From the IMG/VR virus record IMGVR_UViG_2737471864_000005: 10,260 bases of DNA; one strand, written 5' to 3'. The notes under the pieces are model-generated. The model was not told the DNA's origin. It searched no databases and saw nothing but the letters and a program-made list of their open reading frames with translations. Shown here one piece after another: positions 3,234-10,260 of this stretch. Source of the stretch: a virus. Its lineage: Duplodnaviria; Heunggongvirae; Uroviricota; Caudoviricetes. The translations under genes and the position numbers were made by a program. The stretch's first letter is position 1; each line of letters opens with the position of its first letter.

Positions 3234-3905
3234 TTAAAATGGAATATCAAAGTCTTCATATACTTTGGGATGTTTCTTAGCAAAATATGCCTCAATACCA
3301 TTTGGTAGCTTTAACCTGTGCTTATAGGCTAACGATGTTGCAAATTCTATAAATGATGCTCCTCCTGTTCTTTTGTGTTTCTCCTGGATGATAAGAGAGG
3401 AAAAATTCTCTAACACATCCTCCTCATTATCATTAGCTACCTTTTCACTTGATGAAACAGGTGTTTCTTCCGTCTCCCAGGGTAAAGGCGTATCCCAATC
3501 ATCATCAAGAACATCAAAAGAAGGCTGTTTATTATCTTCCGTAGGGGGAAGCTGATCAGGAACAGTTTTAACAGTAGCTTCTTGTTGTGTCTGGGCTTCT
3601 TGTTCATAAGGAAGGACAATATAAGCATTTGTGCTACCTGCCCTTTCCTCAATCTTCAACCATCCAAAAGAAACAAGATCTTTGATATGACGGCGTACCG
3701 TCTGATCTGTACCTACTCCTAACCGCTCACCAATACCTTTCAAAGATGGTGTTACCTTTTGGTATGTGCCAGATAAACTTAACAAATAAGAATAAATGAT
3801 CTTATGGTGTAGTTTTACTTCTTTTGTTTTGCCGTTAATCACCAGGGAAGTGATTGCTAGTAAGTCATAATCTATTCCTAAAAAAGGTTTTGTATGTTTA
3901 ATCAT
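3234..3905 (-). CDS. Winged-HTH DNA-binding protein with acidic linker; possible replication initiator or replisome organiser
   Basis: 223-aa ORF with AAGGAG SD. N-terminal region (KIIYSYLLSLSGTYQKVTPSLKGIGERLGVGTDQTVRRHIKDLVSFGWLKIEE) resembles wHTH domains of phage O / DnaD-type initiators; central acidic tract (DDDWDTPLPWETEE). Function is an architectural inference. Confidence 0.55.
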   Translation of the reverse strand: MIKHTKPFLGIDYDLLAITSLVINGKTKEVKLHHKIIYSYLLSLSGTYQKVTPSLKGIGERLGVGTDQTVRRHIKDLVSFGWLKIEERAGSTNAYIVLPYEQEAQTQQEATVKTVPDQLPPTEDNKQPSFDVLDDDWDTPLPWETEETPVSSSEKVANDNEEDVLENFSSLIIQEKHKRTGGASFIEFATSLAYKHRLKLPNGIEAYFAKKHPKVYEDFDIPF

Positions 3906-3959
3906 TAAAAAAGCTCCTTGATGTAATCACGCTCTACGGCGCTACTATGGTGATAAAAA

Positions 3960-4130
3960 TCACTTGCTTTTATTTGAGAGTGTTTCAGCCTCTCTTTTCA
4001 ACATATCAAGAATGTAATCTGTGACAGTGATACGTCTACTTCTGGCTTCTTTAAATAACACCTGAAATACTTCATCAGGAATATGAAAGCAAGTGCGTGG
4101 TTGTCTTTTCTTTTCTGTAGTTTCGCTCAT
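3960..4130 (-). CDS. Ribbon-helix-helix (CopG/Arc-type) DNA-binding protein (56 aa from preferred start)
   Basis: ORF track gives 3960..4175; the in-frame ATG at 4130 has a strong AAGGAG SD 6 nt upstream and avoids overlap with the upstream gene. PRTCFHIPDEVFQVLFKEARSRRITVTDYILDMLKRE fits a beta-strand plus two-helix RHH pattern. Confidence 0.55.
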   Translation of the reverse strand: MSETTEKKRQPRTCFHIPDEVFQVLFKEARSRRITVTDYILDMLKREAETLSNKSK

Positions 4131-4149
4131 AGTTTTCTCCTTCTTTTCT

Positions 4150-4338
4150 TTACTCTGTTTCAGATTCTTTTTCATTTTTTCTTAGTTCATCAATAATCTT
4201 GAGTGCTTCATTGAAGCAAGCTGCTCGCTCTGGATAACCTCGACTCCTTGCCATATTACGATTCATTACTACTTGATGGCGAGATAACTCACCTTTTTTA
4301 AATGCCGAGACGACGTGTTCCGGTGTAAACCATTTCAT
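4150..4338 (-). CDS. Hypothetical 62-aa protein, first gene of the regulatory operon
   Basis: ORF with AAGGAG SD 6 nt upstream, directly downstream of the predicted promoter and leader hairpin. Confidence 0.5.
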   Translation of the reverse strand: MKWFTPEHVVSAFKKGELSRHQVVMNRNMARSRGYPERAACFNEALKIIDELRKNEKESETE

Positions 4339-4355
4339 AAAAAACTCCTTATTCA

Positions 4356-4394
4356 GTTAAAAGAAAAAACACCTTGCAAGCCTGACGGCTTCAA
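4356..4394 (-). terminator. Leader hairpin plus U-tract, possible attenuator
   Basis: Stem AAGCC/GGCTT with TGAC loop (4378-4391), extended by TTG/CAA with a 1-nt bulge; on the minus strand followed by GGTGTTTTTTCTTTT. Lies between the predicted promoter and the first RBS. Confidence 0.4.
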
Positions 4395-4444
4395 AGTGCA
4401 TTGATTTTGATTATTTAGAGAAGAATGTTTTCTGTCCCTCTAAT

Positions 4445-4477
4445 ACCTATTATTACATATAAAGAAACATTTGTCAA
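4445..4477 (-). promoter_or_regulatory. Putative sigma70 promoter for the 4338-to-2061 operon
   Basis: Minus strand reads TTGACA (plus 4472-4477), 17-nt spacer, AATAAT; about 100 nt upstream of the first start codon. Confidence 0.4.
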
Positions 4478-5009
4478 TACCTTTTCACAAAAAATCTGAT
4501 CTTTTTCATGCACTTACATTTTTTCTTAGCTATTCGTGCTCTTCTGTGTAGTGCTATTCTTCATTATCCGCTAAAACGCTCTAAAACGCGTTCTAACGAG
4601 ATTTTGATAAAAGCAATACATTCCCTTATGTAATGGCTGTTTAGCTCGCCAGAGGCTTATTTAAGGGGCTTATTTTGTATTTGTTAGGTATATGAAAAGG
4701 TGATTGTAGATATAAGATAGAGAGTCACTTTATAAAACGCTCTGTAAAGCCCTGTAGTGAGTTTATATATGTAGACAATGCGTTTCCATTCCCTACCCTG
4801 CTTAATGCTGTTAGAGAAGCATTTAGACCCCTTATTTTTAATTAATTAAAGTATCCTCTATACACTCCTGTTATGAAACACCTCTGAATCCTTCATAAAA
4901 CACATTATGACGCAAAGAACACTTTTCTAAGGTGATTCCCTTCCTGAATGCTGTTTCTTGCGTCAGAGAGCTACAGAGAGCTTATAAAGCTATTATTAAT
5001 AATAAAGTA

Positions 5010-5062
5010 GATAAGTAAGATAAGTAAGTAAGATAACTAAGATAGATAAGATTAATAAGATC
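5010..5062. repeat. Tandem degenerate 9-mer array (GATAAGTAA-like, 5 units)
   Basis: GATAAGTAA, GATAAGTAA, (GTAA), GATAACTAA, GATAGATAA, GATTAATAA, GATC read directly from the sequence. Confidence 0.6.
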
Positions 5063-5105
5063 AGAATTCTCTTTCGGTGTCGCCTCTGGCTTTTCCACCG
5101 AAAAC

Positions 5106-5260
5106 AATTACACGACTACAGAATGTAGAAGTGGAATTGTATTGAGGCTTAGTGAAATTACACGAGGAAAGCAGAGTGTAATTGAGCTTTAGCCACTCTC
5201 TCTTCGAGTAATTACACAACTACAGAGAATAACAGAGTTATTAAGTGTAGGAGGGTAATT
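5106..5260. repeat. Cluster of AATTACAC motifs with nested short inverted repeats
   Basis: AATTACAC at about 5106, 5157 and 5210; AATTACAC-N12-GTGTAATT inverted pair (5157-5183); CTACA-N-TGTAG dyads at 5115-5127 and 5219-5250; AATAAC-AGA-GTTATT at 5228-5242. Confidence 0.55.
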
Positions 5261-5323
5261 AAGAGGTAGAGAGATAGAGTTAACACGTAAGCAATCTGTA
5301 GATTGGTTAGGTGATTACTCTTA

Positions 5324-5495
5324 CTGCGCACAGCGCAATAGTATTTCTTCGTGGGCGTTATCGCCAACGAAGTTACACGAAGAAAGTAACGCTTTGCTTT
5401 CGGTGTGAGCGGAACGGGCCAGCCAACGTAGCCCGAAAGGTAGCGGAGTAAGGCTGCTTGCCAGAGAGTGAAGCTAACGCCGGAAGGCAAAAAGA
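5324..5495. other. GC-rich island of consecutive stem-loops (candidate structured RNA or DNA site)
   Basis: TGCGC-ACA-GCGCA (5325-5337); CTTCGT-G-GGCG-TTAT-CGCC-A-ACGAAG (5347-5372); GTTAC-N9-GTAAC (5372-5390); CGGGC-N11-GCCCG (about 5414-5434). Markedly more GC-rich than its flanks. The only ORF here (5212..5499 minus) is low-complexity and likely spurious. Confidence 0.35.
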
Positions 5496-5498
5496 TCA

Positions 5499-5675
5499 TA
5501 TATATATAGATATAAAGAATATTATTTAATTATTATTTAATTATTCTTATTAACTTATTCTTATCGGGTATCAGTTTTGATAGGGGTAGGGGTATCAGAC
5601 TTGATAGGGGTAGTCATATCAAAGTTAATAGGGGTATCAATATTGATAGGGGTAACAGAATTCTGTGGGGGTAGC
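5499..5675. promoter_or_regulatory. Candidate replication origin: AT-rich unwinding tract plus five palindromic iterons
   Basis: Near-pure AT tract 5499-5562, then TGATAGGGGTA-type units starting at about 5578, 5602, 5626, 5644 and 5664 (spacing 24, 24, 18, 20 bp). Units form TGATA-GGGG-TATCA dyads, consistent with a dimeric binding protein. Confidence 0.5.
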
Positions 5676-5716
5676 TCACAGTGACCTACCGTTACTACCA
5701 ATCATCACATAGCACT

Positions 5717-6200
5717 CTGTGTAATGTCTTTCTATGTGCGTGCCATAATCCCCCTATATTCCCTGTGTAAATCATAGAATAATGCTCTCTATTCCCTGTG
5801 TAATTCCATACTAAAAAATCCAATGAAAAGTAGCTTAAAAGTGCAATTCTTACTTTCTTCACTTTTACATCACTTTCGCAAATCCTTGTGTAGTGCGGCT
5901 TACAGAGCACCATCAGAAATTGTTGGCTAAAAATTGTTCTGCTTGTTTCTTAATGAGTTTTCTTGTTTGTGCAAATTTTAAAATTTATTTTGTTTTTATA
6001 GCCTTATTTCGTGTAATGCGTGGCATAGCAAGCCCTTTTCTTGTGTTGTCAAGACATTTGGCAACGTTCAAACATCTGTTTAGAAATGCCAAATTGTTGA
6101 TCTAACAAATAAACCTGTATAAACAGAACACCATTTAATCTATCCCCCTGTGTATCCATTAGGCATACCAAATGAATACATCTAAATCGTGTAATATTCC
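5717..6200. repeat. Dispersed GTGTAAT / CTGTGTAA motifs (reverse orientation of the 5106-5260 cluster)
   Basis: CTGTGTAAT-like motifs at about 5717, 5765, 5800, 5885, 6010, 6148 and 6188, including ATTCCCTGTGTAA twice (5758-5812). Confidence 0.5.
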
Positions 6201-6285
6201 GTACCTATAAGGCTTGAAACAGACCAAATGAATACGATATACTCATTTGCATTGAAGTAGTGCCAAATCGATACATTAAGAGGAT
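6160..6285. promoter_or_regulatory. Candidate res site (three resolvase-binding subsites) upstream of the recombinase
   Basis: ACCAAATGAATAC at 6167-6180 and 6223-6235; the latter pairs with ATACTCATTTG (6239-6249) as an imperfect dyad; third related copy CCAAATCGATAC at 6263-6274. Ends just before the recombinase start. Confidence 0.4.
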
Positions 6286-6288
6286 TTT

Positions 6289-6828
6289 ATGAGCAATATC
6301 GGTTATAAGCGTGTGAGCACTGTAGATCAGAACACTGATCGCCAGCTTGCAGGAGTAACGCTTGATAAAGTCTTTGAAGATAAGCTGTCAGGTAAAGACA
6401 CTAACCGTCCAGGATTGCAGGCGTGTTTATCCTATCTGAGAGAAGGCGACACCTTACACGTCCACTCTCTTGATCGTTTAGGGCGTAACACCTTAGACAT
6501 TCTGGAGTTAATCAAACAATTGAATGATCGAGGTGTAATTGTTCGCTTTCACAAAGAAGGAATCATTGCTGACATTACAAGCGCGATGGGAAAGATGATG
6601 CTTACGATGTTGTCGGCAGTTGCAACGTGTGAACGTGAACTGATGTTAGAGCGTAAACGAGAAGCGCAAGCCGTCAATCCTACAAAGCGTGGTAAAGGGA
6701 AGGCAGTAGATAGGGAAGGTATAAAGAAAGCCCTTTCCGCTGGAGTGTCAGTGCGTAAAACCGCCGAGAGCTTTAATGTTGCTCCTTCAACGGTGCAACG
6801 TATCAAGAAGGAAGAAGAGGAGGCGTAA
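6289..6828 (+). CDS. Small serine recombinase, resolvase/invertase family
   Basis: 179 aa. N-terminal GYKRVSTVDQ with catalytic-serine context, DRLGRN, GKMMLTMLSAVATCERELMLER helix, and C-terminal HTH-like tail resembling gamma-delta/Tn3 resolvase. GAGGA SD 4 nt upstream. Confidence 0.85.
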   Translation: MSNIGYKRVSTVDQNTDRQLAGVTLDKVFEDKLSGKDTNRPGLQACLSYLREGDTLHVHSLDRLGRNTLDILELIKQLNDRGVIVRFHKEGIIADITSAMGKMMLTMLSAVATCERELMLERKREAQAVNPTKRGKGKAVDREGIKKALSAGVSVRKTAESFNVAPSTVQRIKKEEEEA

Positions 6829-7533: not shown

Positions 7534-8355
7534 CGTGTTGCCTCTGTATTCATATGAAAATTAACAAGTTACATACTACACAGGGAGACTACGCATAAAA
7601 CACAATACAAGTAAAGATACATTTTCAAGACAATAGGAGCCATAAAGCGCCTTTGATGGTTATACCAAAAAATAAGCGCCGTAGGCGTATCCACTAAAAG
7701 GGCTTTTTCACAAAAGCTATGAAGTCTTAGCAGTTCTTCTCTTATCAGGCACCCGTTGTACTCCGGTGGACGAAACCGTGCTAGAGCTTGATTCTTTCCC
7801 GATCAAGTTAGGTTTTGAAGAGGTGGGCTTTAATCCACTATTGCACTTAAAACTCTTCCCATCATTTAGCCTGTTTATCCTCTGCAACGTCTCACGACGT
7901 GTGGCATCATTGGACACCGCGCCAGGTGTGGAACATCTTGCTAAGAGTTTTGGTAGAAGGTTTAGAGACGGTGGCACGTCTTCCAGCTTCAAAGGAACTT
8001 GTTACGAGGTTGAGCCTGGGAACTACTCGCCCATACGTGTTACACTACCAAAGCCCATAACAACGTATAGGCGTTTGTAAGTGATAACAGAAGATACAAT
8101 TTCTTAGAGAAGTTAAGCTAAGTTATTGATTTTCTTAATGGTGCGATAATAGGAACAATACACATAGGCGATAAGCTTTGTTTTTGTTGCCTTTTTTATT
8201 GTTCATTTTTTATAGATACCCCCAAAAGTACCCCCATATCTTTTTCCGCCCCTGAAATTTGGTTGTTATTCATACAGCATATCAGGCGGTAACGCTCTCC
8301 CTTTAACCCACTTATTGTATGATAGTGCTATCCCACAATAAGGAATCAGCCAGCC

Positions 8356-8715
8356 ATGAGAATGACCAGTCGCAAAAAAGAGATACTTAGCTACTTTGAA
8401 CCGGATAACCTCGAATGGGTGACTGGTGAGATTGGTGCGCCGCCGTTCGATGTGTCGGGTGTGGCCTACCTGCTTCATGGCATGGTGTCGTTCGATAAGC
8501 GTCACCAGCTCGAATCAACCCGGCACACACTGGAAAGCATGGTTGCTGGTGGACTGCTTGAGCGGGTGACAGTGTATGAATCGCGCCAGATACGGCGCGG
8601 CGGTGATACTAACGCAACGGTCGTGCGCTACGGTTTACCCGGTCAGTGCGCTGTTATGCGCGATACTGGCGGCGCTGACAACGCAATATCAGGTGAATAC
8701 ATGCGGGTCAGTTAA
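8356..8715 (+). CDS. Hypothetical protein (119 aa), enterobacterial-type composition
   Basis: ORF with GC-rich codon usage unlike the AT-rich region to its left; weak AGGA SD. Its 3-prime end overlaps the convergent gene by 8 nt. No family recognised. Confidence 0.5.
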   Translation: MRMTSRKKEILSYFEPDNLEWVTGEIGAPPFDVSGVAYLLHGMVSFDKRHQLESTRHTLESMVAGGLLERVTVYESRQIRRGGDTNATVVRYGLPGQCAVMRDTGGADNAISGEYMRVS

Positions 8716-9250
8716 TAGCCTGCAATCTGTCGTTGATGCGGCTCAGGTCGTAAACCCGGCGTTCAATATCCAGCATCAGGAAATTGTGGATCTCGGCCTG
8801 CTCAGGATTATCAGACTCTCTGGCCTGTAATAGCAATTCATTGTAACCATGCAAGCCGCCTGAGTTTTCCGCCGGGGTGGTGCCTTTCCCACGCAGGCAG
8901 CTAATGGGCTGATTACTCGTATCGTGTGTTTGCTTCTCCAGCACAATGACGCAATCCCACCAGTCGCCAAAGTCATACGTGTAAACCAGCTTGTCACCCT
9001 CATTCTGGAGCGCCGCCCATAGTGGCGTGATTGCCGCGTTACCCATGCTTTCATCCTCACCCCATACGCGATACTCGCTACCTGGATCACCTTTACGCCC
9101 TTTCTCGAACATATACAGGTGTTCGTCATTCCAGCCAAAAGCTAACTGGATCACGGCATGAAGTTTACTAAAGGGGATTTGCTCTGGAACCAGCACACGC
9201 CGCCATATAGGTGGTTTGCTGTCTCGGATGGTTATCTTTAGCTGGTACAT
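8708..9250 (-). CDS. pRiA4b ORF-3-like family protein
   Basis: 180 aa. N-terminal MYQLKITIRDSKPPIWRRVLVP and FGW...YDFGDWW motifs match my memory of the plasmid pRiA4b ORF-3 domain family; assignment is by recall only. Confidence 0.65.
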   Translation of the reverse strand: MYQLKITIRDSKPPIWRRVLVPEQIPFSKLHAVIQLAFGWNDEHLYMFEKGRKGDPGSEYRVWGEDESMGNAAITPLWAALQNEGDKLVYTYDFGDWWDCVIVLEKQTHDTSNQPISCLRGKGTTPAENSGGLHGYNELLLQARESDNPEQAEIHNFLMLDIERRVYDLSRINDRLQAIN

Positions 9251-9370
9251 GCAAATCCTGAATAAATGCGAATCGGAAGGATAACGATACTGACGTACTC
9301 ACAATTCTGTAAAGGTGAATAAAGGAAATTTGCTTAATACGCATAAGTTACATGTGGAATAATCCCATAT

Positions 9371-9556
9371 CTACCTGCGCGGCGCTGGCTTCTTCCACTG
9401 GTAGGCAGGTGCTCGCATCATTTCGCGGAACCTGTCGCGCCGGGCTATATCGGCATTAACTGATCGTTCTATCTCCCGTTGATCTGCCTGTGTAAGCTGG
9501 TGGCCTCCGTGCTCAAGTTTGGCGATGGTCAATAAGGCTATTTCGCGTGGTATCAT
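9371..9556 (-). CDS. Hypothetical small protein (61 aa)
   Basis: ORF with GAGGG SD about 8 nt upstream; charged helical protein, no family recognised. Confidence 0.4.
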   Translation of the reverse strand: MIPREIALLTIAKLEHGGHQLTQADQREIERSVNADIARRDRFREMMRAPAYQWKKPAPRR

Positions 9557-9740
9557 ACGTCATACCCTCTGGAAGGATGAAACACGCCCGGATTAAATTT
9601 CATTTTTCGCGGGTATAAAAAAACGATGGGGCGGGCAGTCCCGGATAGTCAGGGCTGTAGAGATTTGACTACCCCCTCCCCACTGGATTCAGGTTACTGC
9701 TATTCCGTTAAGCGCTGCTTACGGGGATAGCTGCGTTGTG

Positions 9741-9766
9741 ATTTTGACCATTCAGGTCGCCGCTAT
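9741..9766 (-). other. Lambda cosN-like decamer within a repeat-containing non-coding gap
   Basis: Plus 9754-9763 AGGTCGCCGC is the reverse complement of GCGGCGACCT, matching 10 of 12 nt of the lambda cohesive-end sequence GGGCGGCGACCT. Nearby direct repeats of ATTCAGGT and GATTT(T)GAC. Could be chance. Confidence 0.2.
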
Positions 9767-9853
9767 TTCCTCACCGATTGGGTGCTACGCGCGCGCGTAC
9801 TTGTCCCGAAATACCAGAAACCGCCAGCCAGAGGATGATTTCCCTCTGGTGGT

Positions 9854-10135
9854 CTACCTTTGCCTCTTGCCGCCATTTAACCGGAAGGCGTTACCGTTCG
9901 GTTGCGCTATCCCCATGCGGTGTTGCGTTTCGGTAACAGCTTTATGCAGGTCGCCAAATTCCTCAACCTTCACGGGCGGGCGCTTCACGTTCTCCAGACA
10001 CGTTTCACGGCGGCGCTTTATCCATTCCCGATCATCGTCCTCAGTGCATAACAGCATGACTTCCATCCATCGTGCGGCAGCTCTCCGGTATAGCCCTTTT
10101 GACTCCAGCTCTTCAGCTTTCCTGTCCCTTATCAT
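9854..10135 (-). CDS. PerC-family transcriptional regulator-like protein
   Basis: 93 aa. N-terminal pattern AEELESKGLYRRAAARWMEVM...REWIKRRRETCL matches the conserved PerC/Pch N-terminal motif as I recall it. GAGAGG SD 5 nt upstream. Confidence 0.65.
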   Translation of the reverse strand: MIRDRKAEELESKGLYRRAAARWMEVMLLCTEDDDREWIKRRRETCLENVKRPPVKVEEFGDLHKAVTETQHRMGIAQPNGNAFRLNGGKRQR

Positions 10136-10171
10136 TTCTGCCTCTCAGATTATATAGATAAGCAAAAAGGT

Positions 10172-10250
10172 GTTGGTTCAGTTGGTTCAGTTGGTTCAAT
10201 TTGTAAAGATCGTTGTTTTTATTGTGTTTTTTCTGAAATGTTGAACCAAC
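10172..10250. repeat. Three perfect tandem 9-mers GTTGGTTCA plus one inverted copy
   Basis: GTTGGTTCA at 10172-10180, 10181-10189 and 10190-10198; reverse complement TGAACCAAC at 10242-10250. Located upstream of the perC-like gene. Confidence 0.6.
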
Positions 10251-10260
10251 ATCAACTCAT

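Follow-up and report, generated by a model that had tools for sequence, protein, structure and literature searches.

The question raised by this locus is whether an AT-rich tract and the short palindromic sites directly behind it constitute a replication origin and, if so, which protein recognizes the sites. The whole stretch of 10,260 nt that was analyzed is referred to here as the window, and 55 related loci were gathered from RefSeq E. coli genomes, IMG/VR and public assemblies. Sequence comparisons suggest, with a probability of roughly 0.7, that a phage satellite integrated in the E. coli chromosome has its vegetative replication origin here, and that this origin is bound by the island's own initiator. 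The predicted origin is pinned to ~175 bp. Its location is new, but the satellite family to which the island belongs has already been predicted.

The window is predicted to represent a satellite of Stephanstirmvirinae phages that resides in the E. coli chromosome, and to be a member of this family. Positions 4300–6300 show 100% identity to an E. coli chromosome, and the same stretch is present in ~733 of 5,426 complete E. coli genomes, where nearly all copies are chromosomal. A blastn search of plasmids gave two partial matches only, one of which is a 4.9-Mb record, and a genome contig search with a single Rep protein as query gave one close locus. In NZ_CP155555 the stretch is within a 12-kb island beside tRNA-Thr. 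This island has genes for a tyrosine integrase, a baseplate-like protein, a 610-aa protein and a capsid protein (Phage_cap_E), together with small genes. It also has the gene for a 223-aa HTH_36 protein, two small genes, a 1.95-kb non-coding region and a gene for a small serine recombinase. Barth et al. 2023 (NAR Genom Bioinform) independently predicted these islands as satellites with a modular RepA (PMC10448857). The islands described there are of the same element family. They have genes for a capsid and for tape-measure-like and baseplate-like proteins, a tyrosine integrase next to a tRNA and an optional serine recombinase, as well as modular RepA heads that are mirrored in phage odn homologues (PMC10448857). 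No origin was located in that work, and iterons or a non-coding origin are absent from the paper (PMC10448857).

The baseplate-like protein of the island (L001, 6908–9487 region, compared with Muut 138055–140770) is 60% identical to gp018 of phage Muut, and the 610-aa protein encoded in the same L001 region is homologous to the Muut tape-measure protein gp017. The satellite thus carries diverged copies of helper tail genes. The capsid protein gives tblastn matches of ~23% identity to capsids of Pseudomonas myoviruses and nothing closer, so the helper is not identifiable from the capsid. At the right-hand end of the window the G+C content climbs from ~0.35 to ~0.55 near position 8300 (region ~8300–10260). 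There is a match to an ANR-family regulator at 9854–10135 and a perfect 3x GTTGGTTCA repeat at 10172–10198. A search of the window gave no tRNA, whereas tRNA-Thr marks the end of the 100%-identical island in NZ_CP155555. The rise in G+C, the missing tRNA and the right-end content indicate that the right-hand junction of this island copy differs from that in NZ_CP155555.

The coordinates of the features are listed in the table. The non-coding region that holds the tract and the sites has no annotated gene in RefSeq relatives, according to the RefSeq annotation and the ORF list. The AT-rich tract of the original prediction is confirmed; it has 93% A+T in its best 60-nt window, which is the maximum of the non-coding region, and a copy of the tract begins every cassette in the related loci. 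Directly behind the tract is a tandem array at 5562–5672 with periods of 24 and 18 bp (TRF). The array consists of alternating TATCA and TGATA pentamers with spacers that are G-rich or 4 nt in length, and two dyad phases can be read from it. The pattern TATCA-N4-TGATA with at most one mismatch has 6 matches in the window compared with 0.57 expected (0 of 200 shuffles reach 6), and four of the 6 fall within 80 bp. Similarly, TGATAGGGGTA with at most two mismatches has 8 matches compared with 2.06 expected. The four clustered dyads, termed type A, have a constant 4-nt spacer and GGGG flanks, with a centre spacing of 24/24/18 bp. Both the half-sites and this spacing are kept in the diverged relatives L036, L046 and L059, where the inner 4 nt vary and the Rep proteins are just 44–75% identical.

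Features of the window discussed in the text, with positions numbered from its first nucleotide
Feature	Position	Strand	Description
Gene for the 223-aa initiator-like protein (rep)	3234..3905	-	type-A N-terminal winged helix-turn-helix (wHTH) head; Pfam HTH_36
Non-coding region, 1.95 kb	4339..6288	.	holds the origin candidate and other repeat families (at least 4 families in all)
Conserved GC-rich multi-hairpin element	5320..5490	+	directly abuts the AT tract; folding z ~ -3 on either strand
AT-rich tract, candidate DNA-unwinding element	5498..5560	.	63 bp; starts right after GATC (5494–5497)
Type-A dyad iteron 1	5569..5582	.	TATCAGTTTTGATA; listed as TATCAgtttTGATA at 5569
Type-A dyad iteron 2	5593..5606	.	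TATCAGACTTGATA; listed as TATCAgactTGATA at 5593
Type-A dyad iteron 3	5617..5630	.	TATCAAAGTTAATA, 1 mismatch; listed as TATCAaagtTAATA at 5617
Type-A dyad iteron 4	5635..5648	.	TATCAATATTGATA, perfect 14-bp palindrome; listed as TATCAatatTGATA at 5635
Single non-cognate type-B dyad	5653..5666	.	TAACAGAATTCTGT; identical to units of the 5-copy arrays that accompany type-B Rep heads
Single non-cognate type-D unit	5676..5690	.	TCACAGTGACCTACC; unit of the 3–6-copy arrays that accompany type-D Rep heads

The sites had been proposed as five palindromes of the form TGATA-N4-TATCA, regularly phased about two helical turns apart. Non-random tandem dyads are indeed present, but four of the five are type A and the fifth is the type-B dyad, which lies within the part common to the conserved right flank. 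The proposed definition fits 2–3 sites only, and it is the TATCA-N4-TGATA phase that is conserved in relatives. This proposed reading, a TGATA-GGGG-TATCA 14-mer (TGATAGGGGTATCA), was rejected because its half-site spacing is 4 or 10 nt and thus inconsistent. The sites that it fits are those at 5626 and 5644, with 1 mismatch each, and the one at 5584, with 2 mismatches. The phasing over two turns does not hold either, as a spacing of 24/24/18 bp is not helically phased. Further to the right, the type-D unit overlaps a degenerate type-E half-site (CGTTAC). No DnaA box (TTWTNCACA) is present in 4339–6288, which is compatible with a helper-dependent origin; sites for host factors of this sort are frequent in iteron-type origins, though some origins do without them.

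On its other side the AT tract is abutted by the structured element. An alignment of 6 sequences shows compensatory changes at 13 of the 37 consensus pairs of this element, and G-U wobbles favour the plus strand. A search of 4300–6300 against Rfam, at gathering and E-value thresholds, gave no genuine match, and there is no Rfam family for the element. It might act as a small RNA, as a priming or activating transcript, or as a signal for single-strand priming that belongs to the origin. Other repeats surround the core. The 1.95-kb non-coding region has 10 copies of the sequence ATTACAC(G/A), compared with 11 in the other 8.3 kb, and those in the non-coding region lie, e.g., at 5108, 5158, 5212 and 5373 on the plus strand and at 5719, 5765, 5798, 6011 and 6189 on the minus strand. 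These copies mostly face inward from both sides toward the AT tract and iterons. Tandem TAAG/ATAAGATAA-type repeats with periods of 9, 13 and 22 are present at 5005–5061 and are kept in relatives such as L007.

The candidate for the protein that recognizes the dyads is the 223-aa protein. The array is in non-coding DNA upstream of its gene and 1,664 bp from the gene start. The earlier statement that no Rep gene is adjacent therefore holds as to distance, but the island does encode a cognate initiator-like protein. The protein matches replication-initiation, O-like and DnaD-like helicase loader families among the PHROGs with E-values of 4e-12 to 2e-8 (6e-10 for the O-like family). An AlphaFold2 model displays an N-terminal winged helix (residues ~10–96, pLDDT 70–83), a disordered acidic linker (100–158) and a small helical C-terminal domain. 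By Pfam, PHROGs and the model, the protein has neither a helicase nor a primase domain. Searches of the island by Pfam, PHROGs and annotation show no helicase or primase gene, and a P-like helicase loader gene is also absent from the island. Pfam Phage_rep_O gives no match. An hmmscan with each of the five types of N-terminal domain described below gives HTH_36 only and no match to Pfam RepA_N; an assignment to RepA_N by HHsearch has been published (PMC10448857). The best fold matches in the PDB are the N-terminal domains of RepA_N initiators (4pql and 4pt7), but these are weak (Foldseek, E >= 6e-3), with no match below 1e-3.

The list of Foldseek matches mixes RepA_N with MarR, Fur and TubR folds, and the pNOB8 centromere-binding protein is among the weak matches. 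When the PDB was searched by sequence, a single-sequence query and a profile both gave weak generic wHTH matches only (MarR family, E 4e-4; TubR), and many of the alleles are labelled 'transcriptional regulator' in RefSeq. The TubR and pNOB8 matches raise the possibility that the wHTH protein binds the array as a partition centromere, and centromeres are often tandem repeats. A role of this kind has very little probability, since no partition NTPase (ParA, ParM or TubZ) was found in the island by Pfam, PHROGs or annotation, and since the element is integrated in the chromosome and presumably episomal only transiently.

The C-terminal end of the protein points to replication. The tail (codons 3234–3257) reads ..YEDFDIPF, and DFD(I/L)PF ends 113 of 120 homologues. 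The C-terminal hexapeptide of SSB, DDDIPF, docks many replication proteins (PMC5872125); in E. coli the SSB tail recruits PriA, DnaG, chi and others. The ..DFDIPF tail may be the means by which an initiator that has no helicase recruits the replisome, and the resemblance to DDDIPF is to be taken as a lead and not as a test.

Comparison of the homologues shows that they are modular, with five types of N-terminal heads that are unrelated to each other (A–E, 20–30% identical to one another) on a conserved C-terminus. Each head is accompanied by its own dyad: TATCA-N4-TGATA for head A, TAACA-N4-TCTGT (core ACAGAATTCTGT) for head B, GGAA-N5-TTCC for head C, TCAC-NN-TGA.CTACC for head D and GTAAC-N5-GTTAC for head E. 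Arrays have 3–6 copies spaced ~21–24 bp apart. The five head-iteron pairs are new in this analysis. A scan of IMG/VR with the exact pattern gave 43 stretches, mostly with single matches, which is about the level estimated for chance with 16 specified bases. The IMG/VR loci used were the multi-match loci L036, L046, L052 and L059, each with a Rep gene in the retrieved stretch; L030, which has an array and no Rep gene within the retrieved stretch, was left out. The type of the array that abuts the AT tract is the same as that of the head in 48 of 48 loci with a scorable clustered array, with none discordant (17 of type A, 15 of D, 13 of B, 2 of C and 1 of E), although the 48 loci are not phylogenetically independent and the count overstates the number of independent events. 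A decayed relative is found near metG in E. coli B / NEBExpress (L002, NZ_CP053592 2344680–2346787). The Rep encoded there has 221 aa, a head that is type-A-like (74% identical) and a different C-terminus, and the type-A array of this relative has two clear dyads and is truncated by IS1.

A comparison of the window with L020, which is of type D, shows where the sequences have been replaced. The two are 93.7% identical up to position 3532 and have no similarity at 3533–3894, which represents the head. Identity is then 96.2% over 3895–5543, i.e., the 1.65 kb between the head and the array, is lost at 5544–5671, the array, and is 93.1% from 5672 onward. The type-E locus L008 has the same two gaps relative to the window, one at the head and one at the array. 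In addition, head B is found with two different C-termini and island backbones, with B arrays in both, and head A is found on three diverged backbones, with A arrays in all. In these alignments the mosaic breakpoints and the associations across backbones make a stronger argument than the count of 48. Because head and array are replaced as separate cassettes and heads cross backbones, the co-variation goes beyond simple linkage. It is thus highly probable, from sequence data, that the type-A head binds the type-A dyads. An initiator supplied in trans, one of the options in the original prediction, is not needed, as the island's own wHTH protein co-varies with the array. The other option, an iteron-type origin with the distant wHTH protein as candidate initiator, appears the best supported, by the co-variation in 48 of 48 loci, the replacement of cassettes, the PHROG matches and the phage chimeras described below.

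The gene nearest to the array on the right (6289–6828) encodes the serine recombinase and matches DNA invertases (phrog_125, 6e-55). Serine recombinases bind imperfect inverted repeats, and the dyads might be recombination or accessory sites (res, hix or enhancer-like) of this enzyme. However, arrays are present in islands that have no gene with a Resolvase domain nearby (L005, L006, L067, L068, L071, L073–L075, L079, L086 and L092), and for this reason such a function is excluded for practical purposes. Also, the array type follows the Rep head and not the recombinase. Crossover sites of serine recombinases are 26–28 bp in length, and the 14-bp dyads are shorter.

A further alternative is that the dyads are operators and that the wHTH protein is a MarR-like dimeric regulator of a promoter in or near the AT tract, which would serve, for example, the structured RNA or rightward transcription. 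Co-variation demonstrates a specificity of binding and says nothing of the effect of the binding. The head is a generic wHTH by sequence, so that a regulator role is conceivable on homology, and the MarR-family matches and the RefSeq labels are in line with such a role, as is a weak promoter-like site (9/12 matches) inside the AT tract at 5507–5536. Operators are nevertheless unlikely when the position of the array is considered. A distance of ~1.1 kb separates it from the promoter predicted for the rep operon (4477–4449), which is strong and has no type-A dyad, and it is ~550 bp from the predicted recombinase promoter. The cognate array always abuts an AT-rich tract. The PHROG matches are to replication initiators, and neither the SSB-like tail nor the long acidic linker is characteristic of a regulator.

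Many relatives have extra, non-cognate arrays behind the cognate array, whose order is the same throughout: B, D, C, A, b, d, E. Stacks of this type are found in L012, L014, L018, L019, L067, L068, L073–L075, L079, L092, L094, L095 and L098. For example, L067 has B5 D2 C4 A2 B D E, L014 has D4 C4 A2 B D2 E2, and L079 has C5 A4 D. In the window the order is A4, one B dyad, one D unit and an E-like half-site. The presence of extra non-cognate arrays (e.g., D+C+A) means that presence of an array alone does not imply its use. The arrangement that is conserved is one where the cognate cassette always leads, and the cognate array abuts a conserved left block and the AT tract. This constant place fits a need for iterons to be beside an unwinding element.

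What is unusual about these loci is that spare iteron cassettes are stacked, and the ordered stack is new here. A tentative explanation, one that we regard as possible and on balance doubtful, is that the stack is a store of spare origins from which a new specificity, and with it an escape from origin-directed phage nucleases, could be obtained in two steps. In the first step the leading cassettes would be lost by recombination between copies of the AT tract, and in the second an exchange of the Rep head would complete the new replicon specificity. The lone B and D sites of the window would be remains of a stack, and the two-headed phage nucleases described next (a variable head plus head C) would be a counter-move against composite origins.

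Four phages, Muut, Inny, Mt1B1_P17 and BI-EHEC, encode proteins that consist of a head A, E or B, followed by a head C and a T5orf172 nuclease. In Muut gp094 (332 aa; L004 5001–5999), head A has 99.5% nucleotide identity over 369 nt to the rep gene of the window, and head C has 98.9% nucleotide identity over 261 nt to the rep gene of L007 (L007 2485–3204). These are joined to a T5orf172/GIY-YIG-type nuclease domain (phrog_681, 2e-18). Syntenic genes have heads E and C in Inny, heads B and C in Mt1B1_P17 (99.7% over 314 nt) and heads B and C in BI-EHEC. Nucleotide identities between phage heads and island rep genes are 99.5%, 92.8% and 99.7%. The BI-EHEC gene (L011, OL505078, ~130096–131060) is an unannotated ORF of 321 aa with heads B and C and T5orf172, and it represents a fourth phage beyond the three published. 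The second head of the phage nucleases has been reported as having no satellite homologue (PMC10448857). It matches the N-terminal heads of type-C island Rep proteins (L007 2485–3204; L021 2375–3043), and this match is new relative to that report.

The phages carry the heads and not the sites. A search of the helper phage for dyads, as proposed with the original prediction, found no clustered dyads of any type in the 146-kb Muut genome, and positions 5300–5900 have no blastn match among phages, so no sequenced phage carries the array. In phage ICP1, the protein Odn has a RepA-like head that directs a T5orf172 nuclease to the origin iterons of the satellite PLE, which are cleaved (PMC8263062). 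By analogy, we infer that the head-nuclease chimeras would cut at the same dyads that the island initiator binds. That phages aim a nuclease with the same heads, as Odn is aimed at the PLE origin, is a further point against operators.

A nuclease aimed at a packaging site would likewise disable a satellite, and the array may be considered as such a site (pac or cosB-like), with the wHTH protein as a small-terminase-like factor by which the terminase of the helper would be steered to the DNA of the satellite. In lambda gpNu1 and other small terminases, repeated sites are bound by an N-terminal wHTH. The island has no terminase gene, and the conserved C-terminus of the protein could dock a helper protein. 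However, there is no similarity to terminase families in Pfam or PHROGs, and the families that are matched are those of replication initiators. The model has no oligomerization core and has a 60-residue disordered linker, and the rep gene is in an early operon and not beside the capsid genes. As the AT-rich neighbour and the SSB-like tail also fit replication, a packaging site is distinctly improbable.

For the replication origin, the following series of steps is proposed. The 223-aa protein would bind the four dyads at 5569–5648 by its N-terminal wHTH head, probably as dimers, and the nucleoprotein complex would then melt the adjacent 63-bp AT tract, where replication would start. Because the initiator has no helicase or primase domain, the conserved C-terminal domain and the SSB-like ..DFDIPF tail are proposed to bring in the helicase, primase and polymerase of the host or of the helper (Stephanstirmvirinae, e.g., Muut). 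Some Stephanstirmvirinae phages may counter this with a nuclease that carries the same head and would cut the same dyads. The exact dyads for five initiator specificities are now given, and the published hypothesis of an origin-directed nuclease in Muut, Inny and Mt1B1_P17 becomes directly testable in E. coli. Along with ICP1 and PLE, the islands and their phages provide a second tractable system in which to study co-evolution between an initiator and its origin on one side and a phage nuclease on the other.

The proposed origin has similarities to several known replicons. The phage lambda origin and the window both display four dyad-symmetric iterons beside an AT-rich region. In lambda, as proposed for the island, the initiator binds DNA through its N-terminal domain and recruits through its C-terminal domain, and in both, initiator specificity modules are swapped among relatives. 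However, the lambda origin is inside the O gene and has 19-bp iterons, whereas the array here is non-coding and 1.66 kb upstream of rep. The RepA_N plasmids of Firmicutes (pSK41 and pTZ2162) have in common with the island a wHTH N-terminal domain paired with semi-palindromic iterons; their C-terminal domain is host-specific. In these plasmids the iterons are within repA, in contrast to the non-coding array of the island, where the fold matches to RepA_N are weak (E >= 6e-3) and Pfam RepA_N is not matched. Satellites of the SaPI/PICI type have origins composed of iterons and an AT-rich region, with specificity pairs of Rep and origin. There the Rep is a helicase (Pri-Rep) and the origin is just 3' of rep, and neither is true of the island. 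The distance of 1.66 kb between origin and rep is unusual for lambda-type and RepA_N replicons and resembles that in PLE.

In PLE, a satellite of Vibrio cholerae, the origin is apart from repA in non-coding DNA that is rich in repeats, and RepA has no helicase or primase (PMC7145576). The differences from PLE are in host, phage and sequences: the window has 14-bp dyads in 4–5 copies and PLE has three repeats of ~30 bp. The nuclease here is two-headed, relatives of the island stack non-cognate cassettes, and RepA_N is undetected by Pfam hmmscan in the island heads. The similarities are extensive. PLE is a satellite of a large lytic myovirus (PMC7145576, PMC8263062), as the island is predicted to be. 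In both, the initiator joins a DNA-binding N-terminal domain to a C-terminal domain and has no helicase or primase, the iterons are semi-palindromic, and the known or proposed origin is in a large, multi-repeat non-coding region apart from rep. In both, the initiator head and the origin are exchanged between elements as a module, and both ICP1 and Muut carry a chimera of the corresponding head and T5orf172.
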